Virus record (IMG/VR): IMGVR_UViG_2706794668_000002
Direction: 5' to 3' (one strand)
From: a virus
Taxonomy: Duplodnaviria > Heunggongvirae > Uroviricota > Caudoviricetes
DNA: 25,358 nucleotides
In this document: positions 246-25,358 of the stretch, one piece after another
Position numbering within the stretch: the stretch's first letter is position 1
Layout of the letters: every line of letters begins with the position of its first letter
Notes under the pieces: generated by a model
Database searches by the model: none
What the model saw: the letters and a program-made list of their open reading frames with translations, nothing else
What the model was told of the DNA's origin: nothing
Program-made: the position numbers and the translations under genes

Positions 246-656
246 TTAGTGCGGAAATATTTGTGTAGTGTTCTGTATGTTCTCAGTAAAGAGTAATGAA
301 TTATCAAAGGTATAGTAATACCTTTTGTTTTCGTGGATATTTGTAATCCATCTGAAAACCCCTGCTGTAGCAAGATTTTTCCTGTATTCGTAAAATGATA
401 ACTCTCCTGATTTGAATCCTTTTAAGGTGGCTTCTATAAGGCATTTATTTTTTGAAAATCTTACATTTACAACCTTACCCTGTCCTTTTATTAAAACCGT
501 ATTATCGTTTTCAAGAACAAGATGAATATTCTCTGTGGCTAAATAGTAAATGTAATGTGAGACATTGTGACGTTTTAGTTCAGAATAAAACCAGTGATAG
601 TTTAAATTATTTCGCACTTTATCGAATATTTGTTTAAAAATGGCAACCTGAGCCAT
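246..656 (-). CDS. hypothetical protein, AT-rich moron between lysis region and cos (136 aa if started at MAQVAIFKQ...)
   Basis: ORF track 246..671 (-). The second in-frame ATG at 656 is preceded by GGAAGG with a 7-nt spacer, so 656 is the preferred start. Composition is visibly AT-rich relative to the phage structural genes. Size and position resemble the small 'putative envelope protein' ORFs found between bor and cos in lambdoid prophages, but I cannot confirm family from memory. Confidence 0.65.
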
Positions 657-713
657 TGTAGTACCTTCCATGTGATATGAGGGGGCGTAGTCTGCACGAT
701 TATCTAAATTGCT

Positions 714-947
714 TCAATCTGGTCTAACCTGTTTTCTGAGCAATTCAGTAATGTCACTCTTTTCTTTGTTTGCTTCAGGCGAAACTCTTTTTTCTGAGCA
801 CAGTCTCCGGCGGCAGGCTTCAATGACCCAGGCTGAGAAATTCCCGGACCCTTTTTGAACAAGAGCGATGTTAATTTGTTCAATCATTTGGTTAGGAAAG
901 CGGATGTTGCGGGTTGTTGTTCTGCGGGTTCTGTTCTTCGTTGACAT
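714..947 (-). CDS. small ribbon-helix-helix-like DNA-binding protein (lambda right-end orf / DUF3950-like)
   Basis: 77-aa ORF MSTKNRTRRTTTRNIRFPNQMIEQINIALVQKGSGNFSAWVIEACRRRL... The N-terminal two thirds match my recollection of the small leftward ORF at the right end of lambda just before cos. The pattern of a basic strand (RNIRFP) followed by two helices is typical of Arc/CopG-type RHH folds. The C-terminal tail differs from the lambda version as I recall it. Confidence 0.75.
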   Translation of the reverse strand: MSTKNRTRRTTTRNIRFPNQMIEQINIALVQKGSGNFSAWVIEACRRRLCSEKRVSPEANKEKSDITELLRKQVRPD

Positions 948-1116
948 GAGGTTGCCCTGTATTCAGTGTCGCTGATTTGTATTGTCTGAAGTTGTTTTTA
1001 CGTTAAGTTGATGCAGATCAATTAATACGATACCTGCGTCATAATTGATTATTTGACGTGGTTTGATGGCGTAGATGCACGTTGTGACATGTAGATGATA
1101 ATTATTATCATTTTGC

Positions 1117-1320
1117 GGGTCCTTTCCGGCGATCCGACAGGTTACGGGGCGGAAGGCGCGCGGGTTTTCGCTATTTATGACAATTTTCCGGTTTAAGGCG
1201 TTTCCGTTCTTCTTCGCCGTAACCTAATGTTTTTATTTAAAACACCCCCTGAAAAGAAAGGAAACGACAGGTGCTGAAAACGGGCTTTTTGGCCTCTGTC
1301 GTTTCCTTTCTCTGTTTTTG
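1117..1320 (+). other. cos: cos site in joined form: cosQ-like GGGTCCT (1117-1123), cosN core (about 1141-1164, cohesive-end equivalent 1147-1158), cosB with Nu1-binding R elements (R3 about 1198-1216; R2 1257-1270 and R1 1297-1310 as an inverted pair) and an AT-rich IHF-type segment (1221-1245)
   Basis: Sequence 961-1146 matches the lambda right end (...GATCCGACAGGTTACG) and 1159-1335 matches the lambda left end (CGCGGGTTTTCGCTATTTATGA...GGAAACGACAG...CTGTCGTTTCC...) directly upstream of Nu1. GGAAACGACAG and CTGTCGTTTCC form an inverted repeat visible in the sequence. Confidence 0.85.
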
Positions 1321-1335
1321 TCCGTGGAATGAACA

Positions 1336-1855
1336 ATGGAAGTCAACAAAAAGCAGCTGGCTGACATTTTCGGTGCGAGTATCCGTACCATTCAGAACTG
1401 GCAGGAACAGGGAATGCCCGTTCTGCGAGGCGGTGGCAAGGGTAATGAGGTGCTTTATGACTCTGCCGCCGTTATAAGATGGTATGCCGAAAGGGATGCT
1501 GAAATTGAGAACGAAAAGCTGCGCCGGGAAGTTGAAGAACTGCGGCAGGCCAGCGAGACAGATCTCCAGCCAGGGACTATTGAGTACGAACGCCATCGAC
1601 TTACGCGTGCGCAGGCCGACGCACAGGAGCTGAAAAATGCCAGAGACTCCGCTGAAGTGGTGGAAACCGCATTCTGTACTTTCGTGCTGTCGCGGATCGC
1701 AGGTGAAATTGCCAGTATTCTCGACGGGATCCCCCTGTCGGTGCAGCGGCGTTTTCCGGAACTGGAAAACCGACATGTTGATTTCCTGAAACGGGATATC
1801 ATCAAAGCCATGAACAAAGCAGCCGCGCTGGATGAACTGATACCGGGGTTGCTGA

Positions 1856-1881
<26 letters not shown>
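1336..1881 (+). CDS. nu1: terminase small subunit Nu1
   Basis: 181-aa ORF MEVNKKQLADIFGASIRTIQNWQEQGMPVLRGGGKGNEVLYDSAAV... is essentially the lambda gpNu1 sequence, same length, with an N-terminal winged-HTH. Its end overlaps the start of A. Confidence 0.95.
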
Positions 1882-5615
<3,734 letters not shown>

Positions 5616-15784: not shown

Positions 15785-16034
15785 NNNNNNNNNNNNNNNN
15801 NNNNNNNNNNNNNNNNNNNNNNNNNNNNNNNNNNNNNNNNNNNNNNNNNNNNNNNNNNNNNNNNNNNNNNNNNNNNNNNNNNNNNNNNNNNNNNNNNNNN
15901 NNNNNNNNNNNNNNNNNNNNNNNNNNNNNNNNNNNNNNNNNNNNNNNNNNNNNNNNNNNNNNNNNNNNNNNNNNNNNNNNNNNNNNNNNNNNNNNNNNNN
16001 NNNNNNNNNNNNNNNNNNNNNNNNNNNNNNNNNN
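15785..16034. other. run of 250 N (assembly gap or masked bases) spanning the K 3' end and I 5' end
   Basis: Literal n characters. The K frame enters the run and the I frame leaves it. Confidence 0.99.
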
Positions 16035-16712: not shown

Positions 16713-19700
16713 ATGGGTAAAGGCAGCAGTAAGGGGCATACCCCGCGCGAAGCGAAGGACAACCTGAAGTCCACGCAGCTGCTGAGTGTGATCGATGCCA
16801 TCAGCGAAGGGCCGGTTGAAGGTCCGGTGGATGGATTAAAAAGCGTGCTGCTGAACAGTACGCCGGTGCTGGACAGTGAGGGGAATACCAACATCTCCGG
16901 CGTCACGGTGGTGTTCCGGGCAGGTGAGCAGGAGCAGTCACCGCCGGAGGGATTTGAATCCTCCGGCTCCGAGACGGTGCTGGGTACGGAAGTGAAATAT
17001 GACACGCCGATCACCCGGACCATCACGTCGGCAAACATTGACCGACTGCGTTTTACCTTCGGTGTACAGGCACTGGTGGAAACCACCTCAAAGGGAGACA
17101 GGAATCCGTCTGAAGTTCGCCTGCTGGTTCAGATACAGCGTAACGGTGGCTGGGTGACGGAAAAAGACATCACCATTAAGGGCAAAACCACCTCGCAGTA
17201 TCTGGCCTCGGTGGTGGTGGATAACCTGCCGCCGCGCCCGTTTAATATCCGGATGCGCAGAATGACGCCGGACAGCACCACAGACCAGCTGCAGAACAAA
17301 ACGCTCTGGTCGTCATACACCGAAATCATCGATGTGAAACAGTGCTACCCGAACACGGCACTGGTCGGCGTACAGGTGGATTCGGAGCAGTTCGGCAGCC
17401 AGCAGGTGAGCCGTAATTATCATCTTCGCGGGCGCATTCTGCAGGTGCCGTCGAACTATAATCCGCAGACGCGGCAATACAGCGGTATCTGGGACGGAAC
17501 GTTAAAACCGGCATACAGCAACAACATGGCCTGGTGTCTGTGGGATATGCTGACCCATCCGCGCTATGGCATGGGGAAACGTCTTGGTGCGGCAGATGTG
17601 GATAAATGGGCGCTGTATGTCATCGGCCAGTACTGTGACCAGTCGGTGCCGGACGGCTTTGGCAGCACGGAGCCGCGCATCACCTGTAATGCCTGGCTGA
17701 CCACACAGCGCAAGGCGTGGGATGTGCTCAGTGATTTCTGCTCGGCGATGCGCTGTATGCCGGTATGGAACGGGCAGACGCTGACGTTCGTGCAGGACCG
17801 ACAGTCGGATAAGGTGTGGGCCTATAACCGCAGTAATGTGGTGATGCCGGATGATGGCGCGCCGTTCCGCTACAGTTTCAGCGCCCTGAAAGACCGCCAT
17901 AATGCCGTTGAGGTGAACTGGATTGACCCGGATAACGGCTGGGAGACGGCGACAGAGCTTGTGGAGGATACGCAGGCCATTGTCCGTTACGGTCGTAACG
18001 TCACGAAGATGGATGCCTTTGGCTGTACCAGCCGGGGGCAGGCACACCGCGCCGGGCTGTGGCTGATTAAAACGGAACTGCTGGAGACGCAGACCGTGGA
18101 TTTCAGCGTGGGTGCTGAAGGGCTTCGTCATGTACCGGGCGATGTCATTGAAATCTGCGATGATGACTATGCCGGTATCCGCACCGGCGGGCGCGTGCTG
18201 GCGGTGAACAGCCAGACCCGGACGCTGACGCTCGACCGTGAAATCACGCTGCCATCCTCCGGCACCACGCTGATAAGCCTGGTTGACGGGCAGGGGAATC
18301 CGGTCAGCGTGGAGGTCCAGTCCGTCACCGACGGCGTGAAGGTAAAAGTGAGCCGTGTTCCTGACGGTGTTGCTGAATACAGCGTGTGGGGGCTGAAGCT
18401 GCCGACGCTGCACCAGCGATTGTTCCGCTGCGTGAGTATCCGTGAGAACGACGACGGCACGTATGCCATCACCGCCGTGCAGCATGTGCCGGAAAAAGAA
18501 GCCATCGTGGATAACGGGGCGCACTTTGACGGCGACCAGAGCGGCACGGTGAATGGTGTCACGCCGCCAGCGGTGCAGCACCTGACTGCCGAAGTCACCG
18601 CAGACAGCGGGGAATATCAGGTGCTGGCGCGCTGGGACACGCCGAAGGTGGTGAAGGGCGTGAGCTTCCTGCTCCGTCTGACCGTAACAGCGGATGACGG
18701 CAGTGAGCGGCTGGTCAGCACGGCCCGGACGACGGAAACCACTTACCGCTTCACACAACTGGCGCTGGGGAACTACAGGCTGACAGTCCGGGCAGTAAAT
18801 GCGTGGGGGCAGCAGGGCGATCCGGCGTCGGTATCGTTCCGGATTGCCGCACCGGCAGCGCTGTCGCGGATTGAGCTGACGCCGGGCTATTTTCAGATAA
18901 CCGCCACGCCGCATCTTGCGGTTTATGATCCGACGGTACAGTTTGAGTTCTGGTTCTCGGAAAAGCGGATTGCGGATATCAGGCAGGTTGAAACCACAGC
19001 ACGCTATCTTGGCACGGCGCTGTACTGGATAGCCGCCAGTATCAATATCAAACCGGGCCATGATTATTACTTTTATATCCGCAGTGTGAACACCGTTGGC
19101 AAATCGGCATTCGTGGAGGCTGTTGGTCAGCCGAGTGATGATGCATCCGGTTATCTGGATTTTTTCAAAGGCGAGATAGGGAAAACCCATCTGGCTCAGG
19201 AGCTGTGGACGCAGATTGATAACGGTCAGCTTGCGCCTGACCTGGCTGAAATCAGGACGTCCATTACGGATGTCAGCAATGAAATCACGCAGACCGTCAA
19301 TAAGAAACTGGAAGACCAGAGTGCGGCAATTCAGCAGATACAGAAGGTTCAGGTTGATACAAATAATAACCTGAACAGCATGTGGGCTGTGAAGCTGCAG
19401 CAGATGCAGGACGGACGCCTTTATATCGCGGGTATTGGTGCCGGTATTGAGAACACCCCTGACGGCATGCAGAGTCAGGTGCTGCTGGCGGCGGACAGGA
19501 TTGCGATGGTTAATCCTGCGAATGGCAACACAAAACCGATGTTTGTTGGTCAGGGCGATCAGATATTCATGAACGACGTGTTCCTGAAACGCCTGACGGC
19601 CCCCACCATTACCAGCGGTGGAAATCCATCGGCATTTTCCCTGACTCCGGACGGAAAGCTGACCGCTAAAAATGCGGATATCAGTGGCAGTGTGAATGCG

Positions 19701-20210
19701 AACGCCGGGACGCTCAACAATGTCACGGTAAATGAAAACTGTACGATTAAGGGCATGCTGGAGGCGACTCAGGTCAGAGGTGACTTCGTTAAAGCTGTAT
19801 CCAAATCATTTCCGAAACAGGCTGGTACGTGGGGTAACACGGAAACACCAAACGGGACGGTTACAGTCACCATAAGCGATGATCATAACTTTGACCGCCA
19901 GATTATTATTCCGCCCATTATTTTTAACGGTATAGCGTATGACGATCCGGGGAGCGGAAATAACCCAGGAGGCACGCGATACACGGGTTATGGTTTTGAA
20001 GTTCGCAAAAACGGCGTATTAATCGCATCCAGAGAAACTAAAGGTGCCATTCCCGGTAGTTACAGTGCAGTTATTGATATGCCTAGTGGTGGTGGTAGCG
20101 TCACTCTGGAGTTTAAGATTTTCCAGAAAGGCAATCAGGGGGCAGGCAATATCACCGACTGTACGGTGATTGTGACCAAAAAAGCGGCTTCCGGCATCAG
20201 TATTCGTTGA
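16713..20210 (+). CDS. J: central tail fiber / tail tip host-specificity protein J, with divergent C-terminal receptor-binding region
   Basis: 1165-aa ORF. Roughly the first 820 aa ([54 protein letters not shown]...) match lambda gpJ closely as I recall it. The sequence downstream of about 19170 is mosaic or divergent. GGAG RBS upstream. Confidence 0.93.
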
Positions 20211-20232
20211 AATATTTATAACCCCAATAAAT

Positions 20233-20256
20233 GGCGTCAGGAATGACGCCTTTTTT
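20233..20256 (+). terminator. intrinsic terminator-like hairpin downstream of J
   Basis: GGCGTCA (20233-20239), loop GGAA, TGACGCC (20244-20250), followed by TTTTTT (20251-20256). Confidence 0.7.
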
Positions 20257-20280
20257 ATTGCAGAAAAGCGAGAGGTAATT

Positions 20281-20797
20281 ATGCGTAAAGTTTGTGCAGC
20301 CATTTTGTCCGCAGCCATTTGCCTGGCCGTATCCGGTGCGCCTGCATGGGCGTCTGAACATCAGTCCACGCTGAGCGCGGGGTATCTTCATGCCCGGACC
20401 AACGTTCCCGGCAGTGATGATCTGAACGGGATTAACGTGAAATACCGTTATGAGTTTACGGATACGCTGGGGCTGGTGACGTCATTCAGCTATGCAGGAG
20501 ACAAGAATCGCCAGCTGACCCGTTACAGCGATACCCGCTGGCATGAAGATTCCGTGCGTAACCGCTGGTTCAGCGTGATGGCGGGGCCGTCTGTGCGCGT
20601 GAATGAATGGTTCAGCGCGTATGCGATGGCGGGTGTGGCTTACAGCCGTGTGTCGACTTTTTCCGGGGATTATATCCGCGTAACTGACAATAAGGGGAAA
20701 ACGCACGATGTGCTGACCGGAAGTGATGACGGTCGCCACAGCAACACGTCTCTGGCGCACTGACGGTTTCATCGTGGGTGTCGGTTATAAATTCTGA
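20281..20797 (+). pseudogene. lom: lom (Ail/Lom/OmpX-family outer-membrane protein) with frame disruption: in-frame ORF 20281..20763 stops early; the conserved C-terminal strand is encoded in the +1 frame, 20753..20797
   Basis: MRKVCAAILSAAICLAVSGAPAWASEHQSTLSAGYLHARTNVPGSDDLNGINVKYRYEFTD... has a signal peptide plus Lom-like barrel strands. The ORF ends ...NTSLAH* at 20763, while the +1 frame across the same bases reads WRTDGFIVGVGYKF* (stop 20795-20797), which is the Lom/OmpX-type C-terminal signal ending in Phe. Confidence 0.8.
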
Positions 20798-20850: not shown

Positions 20851-20861
20851 GTGGGGTGAAT

Positions 20862-23800
20862 ATGGCAGTAAAGATTTCAGGTGTACTGAAAGACGGCACA
20901 GGAAAACCGGTACAGAACTGCACAATCCAGCTGAAAGCAAAACGTAACAGCACCACGGTGGTGGTGAACACGCTGGCCTCAGAAAATCCGGATGAAGCCG
21001 GGCGTTACAGCATGGACGTTGAGTACGGTCAGTACAGCGTTATTCTGTTGGTGGAAGGATTCCCGCCGTCACATGCCGGGACCATCACCGTGTATGAAGA
21101 TTCCCGACCCGGTACGCTGAATGATTTTCTCGGTGCCATGACGGAGGATGATGCCCGTCCGGAGGCACTGCGCCGTTTTGAGCTGATGGTGGAAGAGGTG
21201 GCGCGTAACGCGTCCGCGGTGGCACAGAACACGGCAGCCGCGAAGAAATCAGCCAGCGATGCCAGCACATCAGCCCGTGAGGCGGCAACCCATGCGACTG
21301 ATGCTGCAGATTCAGCACGTGCAGCCAGCACGTCAGCCGGACAGGCCGCTTCGTCGGCTCAGTCAGCGTCTTCCAGCGCAGGAACGGCATCAACAAAGGC
21401 CACTGAAGCCTCAAAAAGTGCTGCCGCTGCAGAGTCCTCAAAAAGCGCGGCGGCTACCAGTGCCGGTGCGGCGAAAACGTTAGAAACGAATGCGGCAGCG
21501 TCACAACAATCAGCAGCCACTTCTGCATCCACCGCGACCACGAAAGCGTCAGAAGCTGCCACCTCAGCCCGGGATGCGTCGGCTTCAAAAGAGGCGGCAA
21601 AATCATCAGAAACGAACGCATCATCAAGCGCCAGTAGCGCAGCTTCCTCGGCGACGGCGGCTGCAAATTCTGCGAAGGCGGCCAAAACGTCCGAGACGAA
21701 CGCCAGGTCTTCTGAAACGGCAGCGGGACAGAGTGCCTCAGCTGCGGCAGGCTCAAAAACAGCGGCTGCGTCGTCTGCCAGCGCCGCGTCAACAAGTGCC
21801 GGGCAGGCCTCAGCCAGTGCCACCGCCGCCGGAAAATCGGCAGAAAGCGCCGCATCATCCGCTTCAACAGCCACAACGAAGGCTGGCGAAGCCACTGAGC
21901 AGGCCACGGCAGCAGCGAGGTCAGCTTCCGCAGCGAAGACATCCGAAACGAACGCGAAAGCGTCGGAAACCCGTGCAGAATCCTCAAAAACGGCTGCCGC
22001 ATCGTCCGCCAGTTCGGCGGCGTCATCGGCATCATCGGCGTCTGCTTCAAAAGATGAGGCGACCAGACAGGCGTCAGCAGCGAAGGGCAGCGCCACGACG
22101 GCATCCACGAAGGCGACAGAGGCTGCTGGTAGTGCGACGGCAGCAGCTCAGAGCAAAAGTACGGCGGAATCTGCAGCAACGCGCGCTGAGACAGCGGCAA
22201 AACGGGCAGAGGATATTGCATCCGCCGTGGCGCTTGAGGATGCGAGCACGACGAAAAAGGGGATAGTACAGCTCAGTAGTGCGACTAACAGCACTTCCGA
22301 GTCACTGGCGGCAACACCAAAAGCCGTTAAGGCCGCGTATGACCTGGCTAACGGGAAATACACCGCACAGGATGCAACGACAGCACAGAAAGGGATAATC
22401 CAGCTAAGCAGCGCGACCAACAGCACGTCTGAAACGCTGGCGGCAACGCCAAAGGCAGTAAAAGCAGCCAATGACAATGCTGAGAAACGTCTGCAGAAAG
22501 ATCAGAACGGTGCGGATATCCCTGGCAAAGACACCTTTACGAAAAATATTGGTGCCTGCCGTGCCTTCGGTGGGTCAGTAAGCACAACAACAGGAAACTG
22601 GACGACTGCACAGTTTATCGAGTGGCTGGATTCTCAGGGAGCATTTAACCATCCATACTGGATGTGCAAGGGTTCCTGGTCTTATGGCAATAATAAAATC
22701 ATTACTGATACTGGCTGCGGTAATATTCATCTCGCCGGAGCTGTCATTGAAGTAATGGGGATAAAGTCAGCGATGACGATCCGCATTACCACTCCGACCA
22801 CATCCAGCGGTGGCGGAACAACCAACGCCCAGTTTACCTATATTAATCACGGAACAGATTATTCACCTGGCTGGCGAAGGGACTATAACTCCAGAAATAA
22901 GCCAACGGCATCAGAGATCGGGGCGCTACCGTCAGGTGGAACAGCAGTATCATCAGTTAATCTGGCTTCAAAAGGTCGGGTAGCCGCGCTGACAGACAAT
23001 ACGCAGGGGGCAGCAGGTCTTGAGTTATACGAGGTGTATAACAACGGATATCCAACAGCGTATGGAAATATCATTCACCTGAAAGGGATGACAGCCGTTG
23101 GCGAAGGTGAGTTACTCATCGGCTGGAGTGGTACAAGCGGTGCTCATGCTCCGGCATTTATTCGTTCACGACGGGATACGACCGACGCAAACTGGTCGCC
23201 GTGGGCGCAGCTTTACACCTCGGCTCATCCTCCTGCAGAGTTTTATCCAGTCGGTGCACCAATCCCGTGGCCATCAGATACCGTTCCGTCTGGTTATGCC
23301 CTGATGCAGGGGCAGACTTTTGACAAATCTGCTTACCCGAAACTTGCAGCCGCTTATCCGTCAGGCGTGATCCCTGATATGCGTGGCTGGACGATTAAGG
23401 GCAAGCCCGCCAGTGGTCGTGCCGTATTGTCTCAGGAACAGGATGGCATTAAATCGCACACCCACAGCGCCAGCGCATCCAGTACGGATTTGGGGACGAA
23501 AACCACATCGTCGTTTGATTACGGCACTAAATCCACGAATAACACCGGGGCGCATACGCACAGTCTGAGCGGCTCTACAAGTTCAGCTGGGGCCCACCAA
23601 CATAGTCAGACTGGGCCCAGAACGAATAGCGGGAGTCAACCTACTGGAATGTTTCCGGCAGGGAGTACTCAAGTTAGCGGGACTAATCAGGTTGGTATCA
23701 GTGGCTCATTAACCAGTGGCACCTCCCAATGGGTAGGTAAATCATCTTCAGAAGGAAACCATACACACTCACTGTCCGGCACAGCAGCATCTGCGGGTGC

Positions 23801-23945
23801 ACACGCGCATACTGTCGGTATTGGTGCTCATACGCACTCTGTTGCGATTGGTTCACATGGACACACCATCACCGTTAACGCTGCTGGTAACGCGGAAAAC
23901 ACCGTCAAAAACATCGCATTTAACTATATTGTGAGGCTCGCATAA
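20862..23945 (+). CDS. stf: side tail fiber protein Stf, full length, with an expanded Ala/Ser/Thr-rich repeat shaft and a His-rich C-terminal tip
   Basis: [60 protein letters not shown]... matches the lambda Stf N-terminus. The track ORF starts at GTG 20856; I prefer ATG 20862. The C-terminus ...[31 protein letters not shown] matches the lambda Stf end. Stop overlaps the tfa start (TAATG). Confidence 0.9.
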
Positions 23946-24526
23946 TGGCATTCAGAATGAGTGAACAAGCACGGACCATAAAAATTTATAACCTGCTGGC
24001 CGGAACTAATGAATTTATTGGTGAAGGTGACGCATATATTCCGCCTCATACAGGTCTGCCTGCAAACAGTACCGATATTGCACCGCCAGATATTCCGGCT
24101 GGTTTCGTGGCTGTTTTCAACAGTGATGAGTCATCGTGGCATCTCGTTGAAGATCATCGGGGTAAAACGGTTTATGACGTGGCTTCCGGCGACGCGTTAT
24201 TTATTTCTGAACTCGGCTCATTACCGGAAAATGTCACCTGGTTATCCCCGGAAGGGGAGTTTCAGAAGTGGAACGGCACAGCCTGGGTGAAGGATACGGA
24301 AGCAGAAAAACTGTTCCGGATCCGGGAGGCGGAAGAAACAAAAAACAGCCTGATGCAGGTAGCCAGTGAGCATATAGCGCCGCTTCAGGATGCTGTGGAT
24401 CTGGAGATCGCAACGGAGAAAGAAACCTTGTTGCTGGAAGCTTGGAAAAAGTATCGGGTGTTGCTGAACCGTGTTGATACATCAACTGCACCGGATATTG
24501 AATGGCCAGTAGCACCTATAGGGTAA
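23945..24526 (+). CDS. tfa: tail fiber assembly protein Tfa
   Basis: 193-aa [82 protein letters not shown]... matches lambda Tfa as I recall it. Confidence 0.93.
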
Positions 24527-24610
24527 ATTCGTAATGATTACCTAAATACGTTATTCTTTTGTTAAAAAAGTGATTTTGCTATAGGTAGGGAGTATGTTCT
24601 TGGATTAAGA

Positions 24611-24642
24611 ATAAAAAATCGCCATGAAAGAGCTTCATGGCG
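24611..24642 (-). terminator. intrinsic terminator for leftward transcription, convergent on tfa
   Basis: Perfect 9-bp stem CGCCATGAA / TTCATGGCG (24620-24628 and 24634-24642) with a 5-nt loop. On the minus strand it is followed by ATTTTTTAT (A-run 24613-24618 on the plus strand). Confidence 0.65.
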
Positions 24643-24791
24643 AGTACATAAACGTACAAAATGTGATGAAAGTAGAGTGGCGTAAGCCACTATATTAAGA
24701 TATGACAATAGCGAAGAAAAGTAAATAACATTTTATGGACGTTTAATTGTTAATTATAAAAACTAGAGTGCCCGATATTGTTTATCTTGCT

Positions 24792-24893
24792 TTAAAATAA
24801 TGTACTCAAACCAAATTTTTGAGCTAAAAGCTCAAATAATATAAATGCAATAATAATGTTTAATAAGACAATTAGCTTGCTTTGTATTTTCAT
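24792..24893 (-). CDS. candidate small hydrophobic protein (33 aa), speculative
   Basis: Minus-strand ATG at 24893 to TAA ending at 24792 gives MKIQSKLIVLLNIIIAFILFELLAQKFGLSTLF: basic N-terminus then an 18-20 residue hydrophobic stretch. A sigma70-like TTGACT (24956-24951), 17-nt spacer, TATTGT (24933-24928) lies upstream on the same strand, and the terminator at 24642-24611 lies downstream. No clear Shine-Dalgarno. AT-rich DNA inflates Ile/Leu/Phe codons, so this may be chance. Confidence 0.2.
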   Translation of the reverse strand: MKIQSKLIVLLNIIIAFILFELLAQKFGLSTLF

Positions 24894-25275
24894 TTCGGAA
24901 TACTGTTAAGTAACTTTGATGACCCTAACAATAGATCGGAATTTTCTTAGAGTCAATGGTCACTGTTTTTGCTTGCAAAGCAAATGTTTTGGTGGTTATA
25001 AGTCGTCTTAATATAGTCACGCATGCAACTTGTTCCATGCGGAGATTAAAGATTGGAATATAACGCGAAGATGGAATTAAATTACATTTGCAATAATTAA
25101 TTTATTATTACTCAATAATTACCGATATTATTATTGTAAATTAATCATTAGAATGCAAAAAGAAATGTAACGGCAAAATAAGAGGACGATAGCTGAGAAA
25201 AAAGCGTGCTTTCCCAATCTGGGGCAAATCACGTCTGAATGACACCTGAAAACAGGTGGTAGCCTCAAGAAGGCT

Positions 25276-25358
25276 GGTGATGCTGCCAACTTACTGATTT
25301 AGTGTATGATGGTGTTTTTGAGGTGCTCCAGTGGCTTCTGTTTCTATCAGCTGTCCCT
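25276..25358 (+). mobile_element. insA: IS1 left end (IRL and 5' leader; insA GTG start at 25331), element continues beyond window
   Basis: GGTGATGCTGCCAACTTACTGATTTAGTGTATGATGGTGTTTTTGAGGTGCTCCAGTGGCTTCTGTTTCTATCAGCTGTCCCT is the canonical IS1 left terminus as I recall it. GTG GCT TCT GTT TCT ATC AGC TGT CCC encodes the InsA start MASVSISCP. Confidence 0.88.

Follow-up and report, generated by a model that had tools for sequence, protein, structure and literature searches.

In this lambda-like E. coli prophage, the tail tip protein J follows lambda gpJ along most of its length and then departs from it. In the window, i.e. the whole stretch of 25,358 nucleotides that was analysed, gene J, which codes for a tail tip / central tail fibre protein, occupies positions 16713..20210 of the + strand as an intact ORF of 1165 aa, according to the ORF list and its translation. 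Our reading, to which we assign a probability of about 0.85, is that J is a patchwork of modules recombining among lambdoid phages, which ends in a receptor-binding domain (RBD) of the phage 434 type, a predicted OmpC binder.

Segments of J and their boundaries

The J ORF ran without a stop or frameshift across its 1165 codons, and all peptides quoted in the preliminary description of this DNA were present in the translation. The Pfam domains FNIII-A_GpJ, Phage-tail_3, Ig_J, Ig_J_second, Phage_Tail_Tip and Ig_GpJ_C (PF24801, PF13550, PF24421, PF24489, PF09327, PF12421) each scored above the curated cut-off and stood in the order of lambda gpJ. The gene is located 3' of the tail genes L-K-I and 5' of lom and of the genes for the side tail fibre, as in lambda, 434, phi458 and MB56. 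Sequence matches in the PDB were to lambda gpJ (8xcj, 8iyk; E = 1e-95 to 1e-96), and the top match for the C-terminal 365 aa was A8 gpJ (9wca, E = 9e-105). Given this homology, and since residues 1-820 share 97% with lambda gpJ, J would be expected to assemble as the trimer that builds both the fibre and the closed tail tip. Other-strand ORFs overlapping the J region (19559-19756, 20019-20318, and a long one at 17502-19190) were judged to be antisense artefacts.

Aligned with lambda gpJ (NC_001416), J shared 96.8% of amino acids over residues 1-820, 34% over 821-940, 89% over 941-1010 and 36% over 1011-1165. The profile matches the preliminary description, in which J tracked lambda gpJ for ~820 residues, later returned to a lambda-like stretch and ended in a diverged C-terminal domain; the last ~150 aa were indeed not near-identical to those of lambda. 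Two of its details needed adjustment. The change of allele, placed at ~19170 after YLDFFKG, is real but starts ~50 nt further upstream, at 19121 (GQPSDDAS vs GRASDDAE in lambda). The shift towards AT-rich DNA from the same point was also observed, with a GC content of 0.585 over 16713-19169, 0.519 over 19170-19535 and 0.476 over 19743-20210, but only part of it is peculiar to this allele, the homologous middle segment of lambda having a GC content of 0.518 as well. AT-richness was thus rejected as a sign of foreign origin for the middle segment, and only the RBD clearly differed from lambda in GC (0.476 vs 0.552).

The segment breakpoints were sharp and located at about 19121, 19560 and 19740. 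Upstream of the first lies module A (16713..19120, + strand), which is lambda/434-like and, as residues 1 to ~803, would comprise the hub and FNIII/Ig domains plus the beginning of the helical shaft. The identity to 434 over residues 1-820 (nt 16713-19172) was 97.4%; this range reaches past module A, as the identity to lambda already declines from 19121. At the nucleotide level, 16713-19169 was 95.4% identical to lambda vs 81.8% to Stx2_EH2201, and the best lambda/Stx split inside module A fell between 18485 and 18500. Module B2 (19121..19559, + strand), which encodes another version of the alpha-helical shaft (AHS) and of the upper beta-prism (CSF), was delimited by the first difference from lambda at 19121 and the last dense ones at ~19559. 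It is followed by module C (19560..19739, + strand), a lower beta-prism stretch conserved across J proteins, and by module D (19740..20207, + strand), the Ig-like RBD, assigned by its identity to 434 and by the Pfam Ig_GpJ_C match (E = 3e-25).

Receptor-binding regions evolve fast under selection (PMC6646904), and the same mosaic could in principle stem from gradual divergence of a single lineage under diversifying selection, with no recombination and with boundaries that are not junctions. We regard this as extremely improbable. The DNA identity to lambda dropped from 0.94-0.98 to 0.28-0.31 (~95% to ~30%) within ~100 nt, returned to 0.89-0.94 at 19542-19721, and then fell to 0.36-0.6. The B2 and D segments recurred at 96-100% identity in otherwise different J genes, as shown by Stx2_EH2201, with just 82% identity in module A, and by phage 21, with another RBD. 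Gradual divergence is further contradicted by informative-site p values down to 1e-134: with lambda and Stx2_EH2201 as parents, Fisher p was 2e-134 for the best split, and with lambda and 434 it was 2e-22, the best split being at 19736-19748 (both uncorrected for the choice of split).

Recombination among lambdoid phages accounts for these junctions, as the preliminary description had proposed: the changes are sharp, and the combinations of middle segment and RBD were all found in other phages. The module combinations seen were A1-B1-D(lambda), A1-B1-D(434), A1-B2-D(434), A2-B2-D(434), A1-B2-D(21) and A1-B2-D(A8-like), and the comparison of RBD type with the rest of J in nine phages showed that the segments reassort independently. 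Between ~19100 and 19800, blocks with 100% nucleotide identity to phi458 and MB56 were flanked by sequence with 90-98% identity, which argues for recent exchange. As reported by Maddamsetti et al. in 2018 (PMC6646904), the specificity region of J (lambda residues 960-1132) is an independently recombining module, and the J C-terminus has already been treated as exchangeable both there and by Brodel et al. in 2024 (PMC11338833). J is a clean textbook case of a phage receptor-binding protein that exchanges cassettes, and it opens no new question.

Module C likely serves as the homologous crossover zone that links the fibre and RBD cassettes. Residues 941-1010 were 84-99% identical across the nine J proteins compared, and the module kept 0.89-0.94 nucleotide identity to lambda; its residues ~949-1009 would form the conserved lower-prism linker. 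The equivalent of lambda residue 964, J residue 992 (nt 19686), lies inside this stretch, which is thus the site also used in engineering lambda particles: natural gpJ C-termini are functional when joined at lambda residue 964, and they redirect the particles to OmpC (PMC11338833).

The long shaft and the receptor-binding domain

The middle block is a module of its own, apart from the receptor-binding swap, and replaces most of the alpha-helical shaft together with the top of the central-fibre beta-prism. Over J residues 821-940 the identity was 34% to lambda and 35% to 434, and 97-100% to phi458, MB56, Stx2_EH2201, phage 21, 1H12 and Chlobot. Phages 21, cdtI, phi458 and Stx phages share the segment at 97-100% identity; it was present in 67 phage records (65 of them with at least 90% nucleotide identity) and in 3609 of 5426 E. 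coli genomes. It is 28 residues longer than its lambda counterpart, with the extra codons within ~19218-19310; in the alignment, the added residues fell at 836-856 and 860-866. The lambda AHS spans residues 809-861 (PMC11101478). A low-confidence single-sequence AF2 monomer of the shaft and prism (mean pLDDT 46, 66-84 over ~841-880) predicted two short helices, at J 811-821 and 826-836, and a continuous one over 841-899. Residues ~804-948 represent the long shaft/upper-prism allele shared by 21, cdtI, phi458 and many Stx phages. The 28 additional residues would lengthen the shaft and leave the choice of receptor unaffected, because phage 21 pairs the B2 shaft with a LamB-using RBD.

Beyond module C, J residues 1011-1165 were 95.5% identical to 434, with no gaps, and 97-98% identical to phi458, MB56 and Stx2_EH2201; a tblastn search gave 94.8% identity between the RBD and its lambda h434 imm21 counterpart. 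The tblastn identities were bimodal, with 74 phage records at 90% or above and the other 169 all below 60% (~36-49% in the rows sampled). Relative to lambda, the RBD carried indels at lambda residues 1011, 1043, 1078 and 1099-1114, in the same pattern as 434. These lie at or near all four indel hot spots of J (1012, 1048-1049, 1077-1078 and 1107) defined by Maddamsetti et al. in 2018 (PMC6646904).

The preliminary description had predicted that the swap alters the receptor, and the identity of the terminal domain to that of the OmpC-using 434 supports this. Lambda that was given the J gene of 434 binds OmpC, the receptor of 434 (PMC11101478, PMC3509688). By this homology, virions of the prophage would adsorb via OmpC, not LamB, as 434 does. 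From the lambda structures (PMC11101478), which supply both the arrangement of domains and the AHS/CSF/RBD relay, we propose that the phage-434-type, Ig-like RBD (residues ~1010-1165), trimeric at the fibre tip, would dock on OmpC, itself a trimeric porin, in place of LamB, just as for 434 and lambda h434. The binding signal would then travel upwards through the prism into the helical shaft; unfolding of the shaft would free the FNIII domains and open the tail tip, as solved for lambda.

Structure prediction added little to sequence homology. The single-sequence AF2 model of the RBD was of low confidence (pLDDT 63), and the top-ranked Foldseek hits, A8 gpJ (E = 7e-4) and the lambda central fibre (E = 1.6e-3), superposed poorly. 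An identity with the engineered RBDs was ruled out, as the A8 RBD resembles that of Chlobot and the 1A2 sequence in the supplement (machine-read, with errors) is of another type. Phage phi330 uses OmpC (PMC12502783), but its RBD shares only 35-40% identity with the RBDs of 434 and lambda. Our literature search found no receptor experiments for phages that combine B2 with a 434-type RBD (Ayreon, mEp332, PhiR phages, cdtI, long-tailed Stx phages).

The RBD differed from 434 at seven of 155 residues (1032, 1036, 1037, 1047, 1136, 1138 and 1143), which clustered beside two of the four hypervariable loops. These substitutions might have retuned a 434-type domain so that certain OmpC alleles, or a different porin (e.g. 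OmpF), are preferred over K-12 OmpC. The two groups, 1032/1036/1037/1047 and 1136/1138/1143, adjoin the indel hot spots equivalent to lambda residues 1012 and 1107, two positions on which the acquisition of OmpF use by lambda critically depends (PMC6646904). In phage 21, a native LamB user, one J mutation adds OmpC use (PMC11336670), so that a small number of changes can be enough to alter receptor use in the J family. Moreover, the gpJ variants A8 and 1A2 accept different sets among 23 natural OmpC variants (PMC11338833), and the variable positions of the RBD segregate among the five 434-type sequences compared. Nevertheless, the domain as a whole keeps 95.5% identity to 434, and its variant residues are widespread and common to Stx2_EH2201 and MB56, which points to normal polymorphism within one RBD type. 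We saw no sign of a porin other than OmpC and consider such retuning quite unlikely.

We must also mention the pairing of the long shaft with the 434-type RBD, which could alter the relay of the receptor signal or the range of OmpC alleles accepted. If so, the pairing would be a functionally distinct host-range variant rather than neutral reshuffling; we think this very unlikely. The loop substitutions at J residues 1032-1047 and 1136-1143 also bear on that reading.

Flanking genes and the state of the prophage

Directly 3' of J, a consensus scan located a terminator-like hairpin and T-run (20233..20258, + strand; GGCGTCAGGAATGACGCC then TTTTTTATTG), and the records of phages 434 and 21 carry an annotated terminator at the matching place after J. 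It is followed by a truncated lom of the Ail/Lom family (20281..20763, + strand), which matched Pfam Ail_Lom over profile positions 1-159 of 199. The side tail fibre (1029 aa; Pfam phage_tail_N, Phage_fiber_2, Collar) and the tail fibre assembly protein (193 aa; Caudo_TAP) are encoded at 20856..24526 on the + strand. These two proteins are the other host-range determinants of the virion.

J could belong to a decaying, non-inducible prophage, as an allele without a present adsorption function. The truncation of lom results from an 83-nt deletion at ~20752-20757, as compared with phi458, MB56 and L006, an IS1-like element begins directly 3' of tfa, and two N-runs render parts of genes A and K unreadable. 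On the other hand, the J ORF is complete over all of its codons and has near-identical functional relatives, the remaining head and tail ORFs of the window keep lambda-like lengths and order, and lom is dispensable in lambda. We thus consider loss of function unlikely and retain the reading of J as a recombinant tail tip protein with a 434-type RBD.

Frequency of the allele and comparison with known J proteins

Of 5426 complete E. coli genomes, 2113 (~39%) contained the RBD of the 434 type, and only 98 (<2%), mostly laboratory lysogens, contained that of lambda itself. Lambda is thus a rare J type in nature and misleads as a yardstick for J; annotation of this gene should predict adsorption through OmpC, like 434, and not LamB. 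The J allele described here is common and has already been sequenced and described, which makes the observation correct but ordinary. Full-length J was ~96% identical at the nucleotide level to J of ev099, phi458, Kati, cdtI and Ayreon.

The closest relatives, gpJ of phi458 (OP434518), cdtI (NC_009514), ev099, Ayreon, Kati, mEp332 and the E. coli MB56 prophage, share the length of 1165 aa and the module set, at 95.5-96.4% nucleotide identity. Throughout the B2 segment, phi458 and MB56 show 100% identity to our J. The differences are scattered point changes, e.g. 3-5 RBD residues, so that these genes effectively represent one allele.

J of 434 (UMO75286, OL657226), to be considered together with the h434 host-range allele of lambda h434 imm21, agrees with our J in residues 1-820 (97.4%), in the RBD (95.5%) and its indel pattern relative to lambda, and in the C-terminal end. 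It differs by the seven RBD substitutions and by a short, lambda-type shaft and upper prism (35% over J 821-940), which lacks the 28 extra residues. Lambda gpJ (P03749; PDB 8IYK, 8XCJ, 8XCK) has the same domain order, 96.8% identity over 1-820, an 89% identical lower prism and an RBD of the homologous family (Ig_GpJ_C). Its shaft and upper prism, in contrast, are only 34% identical and 28 residues shorter, and its LamB-binding RBD is 36% identical, with indels in the four loops.

J of phage 21 (UMO75436) and of Lambda_1H12 resemble our protein in module A (97-98%) and in the long B2 shaft (97-98%), but their RBD is only 39% identical, and phage 21 natively acts on LamB. The engineered chimeras A8 and 1A2 (Brodel 2024; PDB 9wca), both of which target OmpC (PMC11338833), likewise fuse lambda J, within the conserved stretch (964 = J 992), to the C-terminus of a natural gpJ. 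They differ in having other RBD types, the A8-like Chlobot RBD being 42% identical to that of J, and the short lambda shaft.

Gene context of J

The window comes from a lambda-like E. coli prophage, of which it represents the late region (head and tail). The tail tip protein J is encoded by an ORF of 1165 aa at 16713-20210 (+), downstream of the L-K-I tail genes, and contains the complete Pfam series of lambda gpJ (FNIII-A_GpJ, Phage-tail_3, Ig_J, Ig_J_second, Phage_Tail_Tip, and Ig_GpJ_C). An antisense open frame of 562 codons inside J (17502-19190, -) was regarded as artefactual, a product of the GC-rich coding strand. Downstream of J lie a terminator-like hairpin (20233-20250, then a T-run) and three genes, the first lom-like and the others for a side tail fibre and for tail fibre assembly. 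The lom-like gene (20281-20763; 160 aa, covering positions 1-159 of the 199 in Pfam Ail_Lom) is truncated by an 83-nt frame-shifting deletion at ~20752-20757, relative to phi458, the E. coli MB56 prophage, and a locus of E. coli SCPM-O-B-8794; the BLAST alignments on its two sides share 6 nt of the window (20752-20757). Two N-runs, 3140-3434 (295 bases) and 15785-16034 (250 bases), fall in a terminase large-subunit-like ORF and in gpK, where the sequence is masked or unknown. Within the tail fibre assembly gene, 24288-24486 (+) matched Rfam IS009 (RF02111) with 218 bits against a gathering score of 117. At its AT-rich right end (24500-25358, GC about 0.29-0.36), the window matches many E. coli loci whose annotation gives an IS1A-family transposase after the tail fibre assembly protein; it therefore appears to run into an IS1 copy adjoining the prophage tail genes.

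Mosaic structure of J

We aligned J of the window to J of lambda (NC_001416), 434 (OL657226), and phi458 (OP434518). Amino acid identity to lambda was 96.8% over residues 1-820, 34% over 821-940 (28 residues more than in lambda), 89% over 941-1010, and 36% over 1011-1165. Nucleotide identity in a 90-nt sliding window passed from 0.94-0.98 to 0.28-0.31, then to 0.89-0.94, and finally to 0.36-0.6. The alignment and the scan thus bear out the mosaic J with a diverged C-terminal part proposed in the preliminary description, whose quoted peptides are all found in the translation; the lambda-like stretch is regained as it claimed, and the last ~150 aa are far from near-identical to lambda. Its placement of the onset at ~19170 was less exact: the divergence is real, but the first cluster of differences (GQPSDDAS vs GRASDDAE in lambda) starts at 19121, ~50 nt earlier. 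The shift towards AT described at the same position is also real, with G+C at 0.585 upstream, falling to 0.519 across the middle segment and to 0.476 across the terminal domain, but it is clearly allele-specific only in the latter, as the lambda values for the two are 0.518 and 0.552, respectively.

Nine J proteins were compared segment by segment. The hub/FNIII module is lambda/434-like in all of them except Stx2_EH2201, where it is divergent (82%). Lambda combines a short shaft with a lambda-type receptor-binding domain (RBD), and 434 a short shaft with its own RBD type. The long shaft is joined to a 434-type RBD in the window, phi458, MB56, and Stx2_EH2201, to a 21-type RBD in 21 and Lambda_1H12, and to an A8-like RBD in Chlobot. 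It follows that shaft and RBD assort independently, both of one another and of the remaining parts of J. Informative sites placed breakpoints at 18485-18500 (lambda vs Stx parent, Fisher p = 2e-134) and 19736-19748 (lambda vs 434 parent, p = 2e-22); although these p values are those of the best split and carry no correction for its selection, the effect is overwhelming. Together with the reassortment, the breakpoints support the earlier view of the exchange boundaries as recombination junctions. The conserved stretch 941-1010, which separates the two variable segments, holds residue 992 (lambda residue 964). Blocks within ~19100-19800 are 100% identical in nucleotide sequence to phi458 and MB56 and sit within flanks of 90-98%, which points to recent exchange.

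The long shaft

In lambda, the alpha-helical shaft (residues 809-861) is followed by the beta-prism CSF (PMC11101478). As mapped onto the lambda structures, the middle block takes the place of the shaft from about residue 804 onward, as well as of the upper prism. The insertion of 28 residues falls between lambda residues 835 and 839, and single-sequence AF2 predicted a continuous helix across the inserted part (monomer model, low confidence); such models of J segments reached low confidence only. We suspect that this indel corresponds to the additional indel peaks upstream in J, the consequence of which Maddamsetti et al. (2018) left unexplained (PMC6646904). The long shaft is 97-100% identical in phi458, the MB56 prophage, Stx2_EH2201, 21, Lambda_1H12, and Chlobot; among 5426 complete E. 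coli genomes, it was found in 3609 and the short shaft in 2649. The long shaft is unlikely to set receptor choice, since phage 21, with the same shaft, natively uses LamB (PMC11336670), and 434 binds OmpC with a short one.

Receptor-binding domain and comparison with known alleles

The terminal 155 residues align gap-free with the 434 counterpart at 95.5% identity (94.8% with lambda h434 imm21, tblastn). RBD identities were bimodal among 243 phage records, 74 at ≥90% and the other 169 all <60% (sampled rows at about 36-49%), so RBD types behave as discrete cassettes, the window carrying the 434 type. Assignment to the types of the engineered lambda gpJ variants A8 or 1A2 was rejected, as both are other RBD types.

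Seven substitutions separate the domain from that of 434 (residues 1032, 1036, 1037, 1047, 1136, 1138, and 1143), adjoining two of the four variable loops. In the J family, receptor use can be added or shifted by one to a few substitutions (Maddamsetti et al. 2018; phage 21), and the seven variants are possibly tuned to OmpC alleles. Stx2_EH2201 and MB56 carry the same variants, which makes these ordinary polymorphism of the 434 type.

Placing 434 J in lambda redirects it to OmpC, the receptor of 434 (PMC11101478, PMC3509688). In lambda, the trimeric Ig-like RBD puts four loops into the porin, and a signal passes up the prism; the shaft then flips and in part refolds, after which the FNIII domains are released and the tip opens (PMC11101478). 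Given the 95.5% identity to 434, J of the window would presumably dock on OmpC and be triggered in the same way as its relatives. The change of receptor foreseen in the preliminary description is therefore supported at the level of sequence; the description is accurate in its finding and supported in its interpretation. In the literature searched, receptor experiments on phages carrying exactly this allele were not found.

The nearest solved structures are those of A8 gpJ (9wca), an engineered OmpC-targeting variant (Brodel et al.), and lambda gpJ (8xcj, 8xck); PDB sequence matches included none with a 434-type RBD. The Chlobot RBD (J at 538-4020) is, by eye, nearly the same as the chain 'A8 gpJ 713' of 9wca, and is naturally joined to the long shaft.

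The 434-type RBD (19740-20210 in the window) occurs in 2113 of the 5426 E. coli genomes, and the lambda RBD in 98, always at ≥99% identity, with laboratory and DE3 strains as its carriers among the matches listed; the model phage thus has a rare RBD type. Maddamsetti et al. (2018) showed lambda residues 960-1132 to be a specificity module that recombines independently and has its indel hot spots at four places, 1012, 1048-1049, 1077-1078, and 1107 (PMC6646904); the window has indels at lambda residues 1011, 1043, 1078, and 1099-1114. Over its full length, the gene shares 95.5-96.4% identity with J in at least 15 sequenced phage records, among them ev099, phi458, Kati, cdtI, Ayreon, and mEp332. 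Judged by these matches, J of the window is a common allele, already sequenced and explained, a textbook J mosaic with a 434-type domain.
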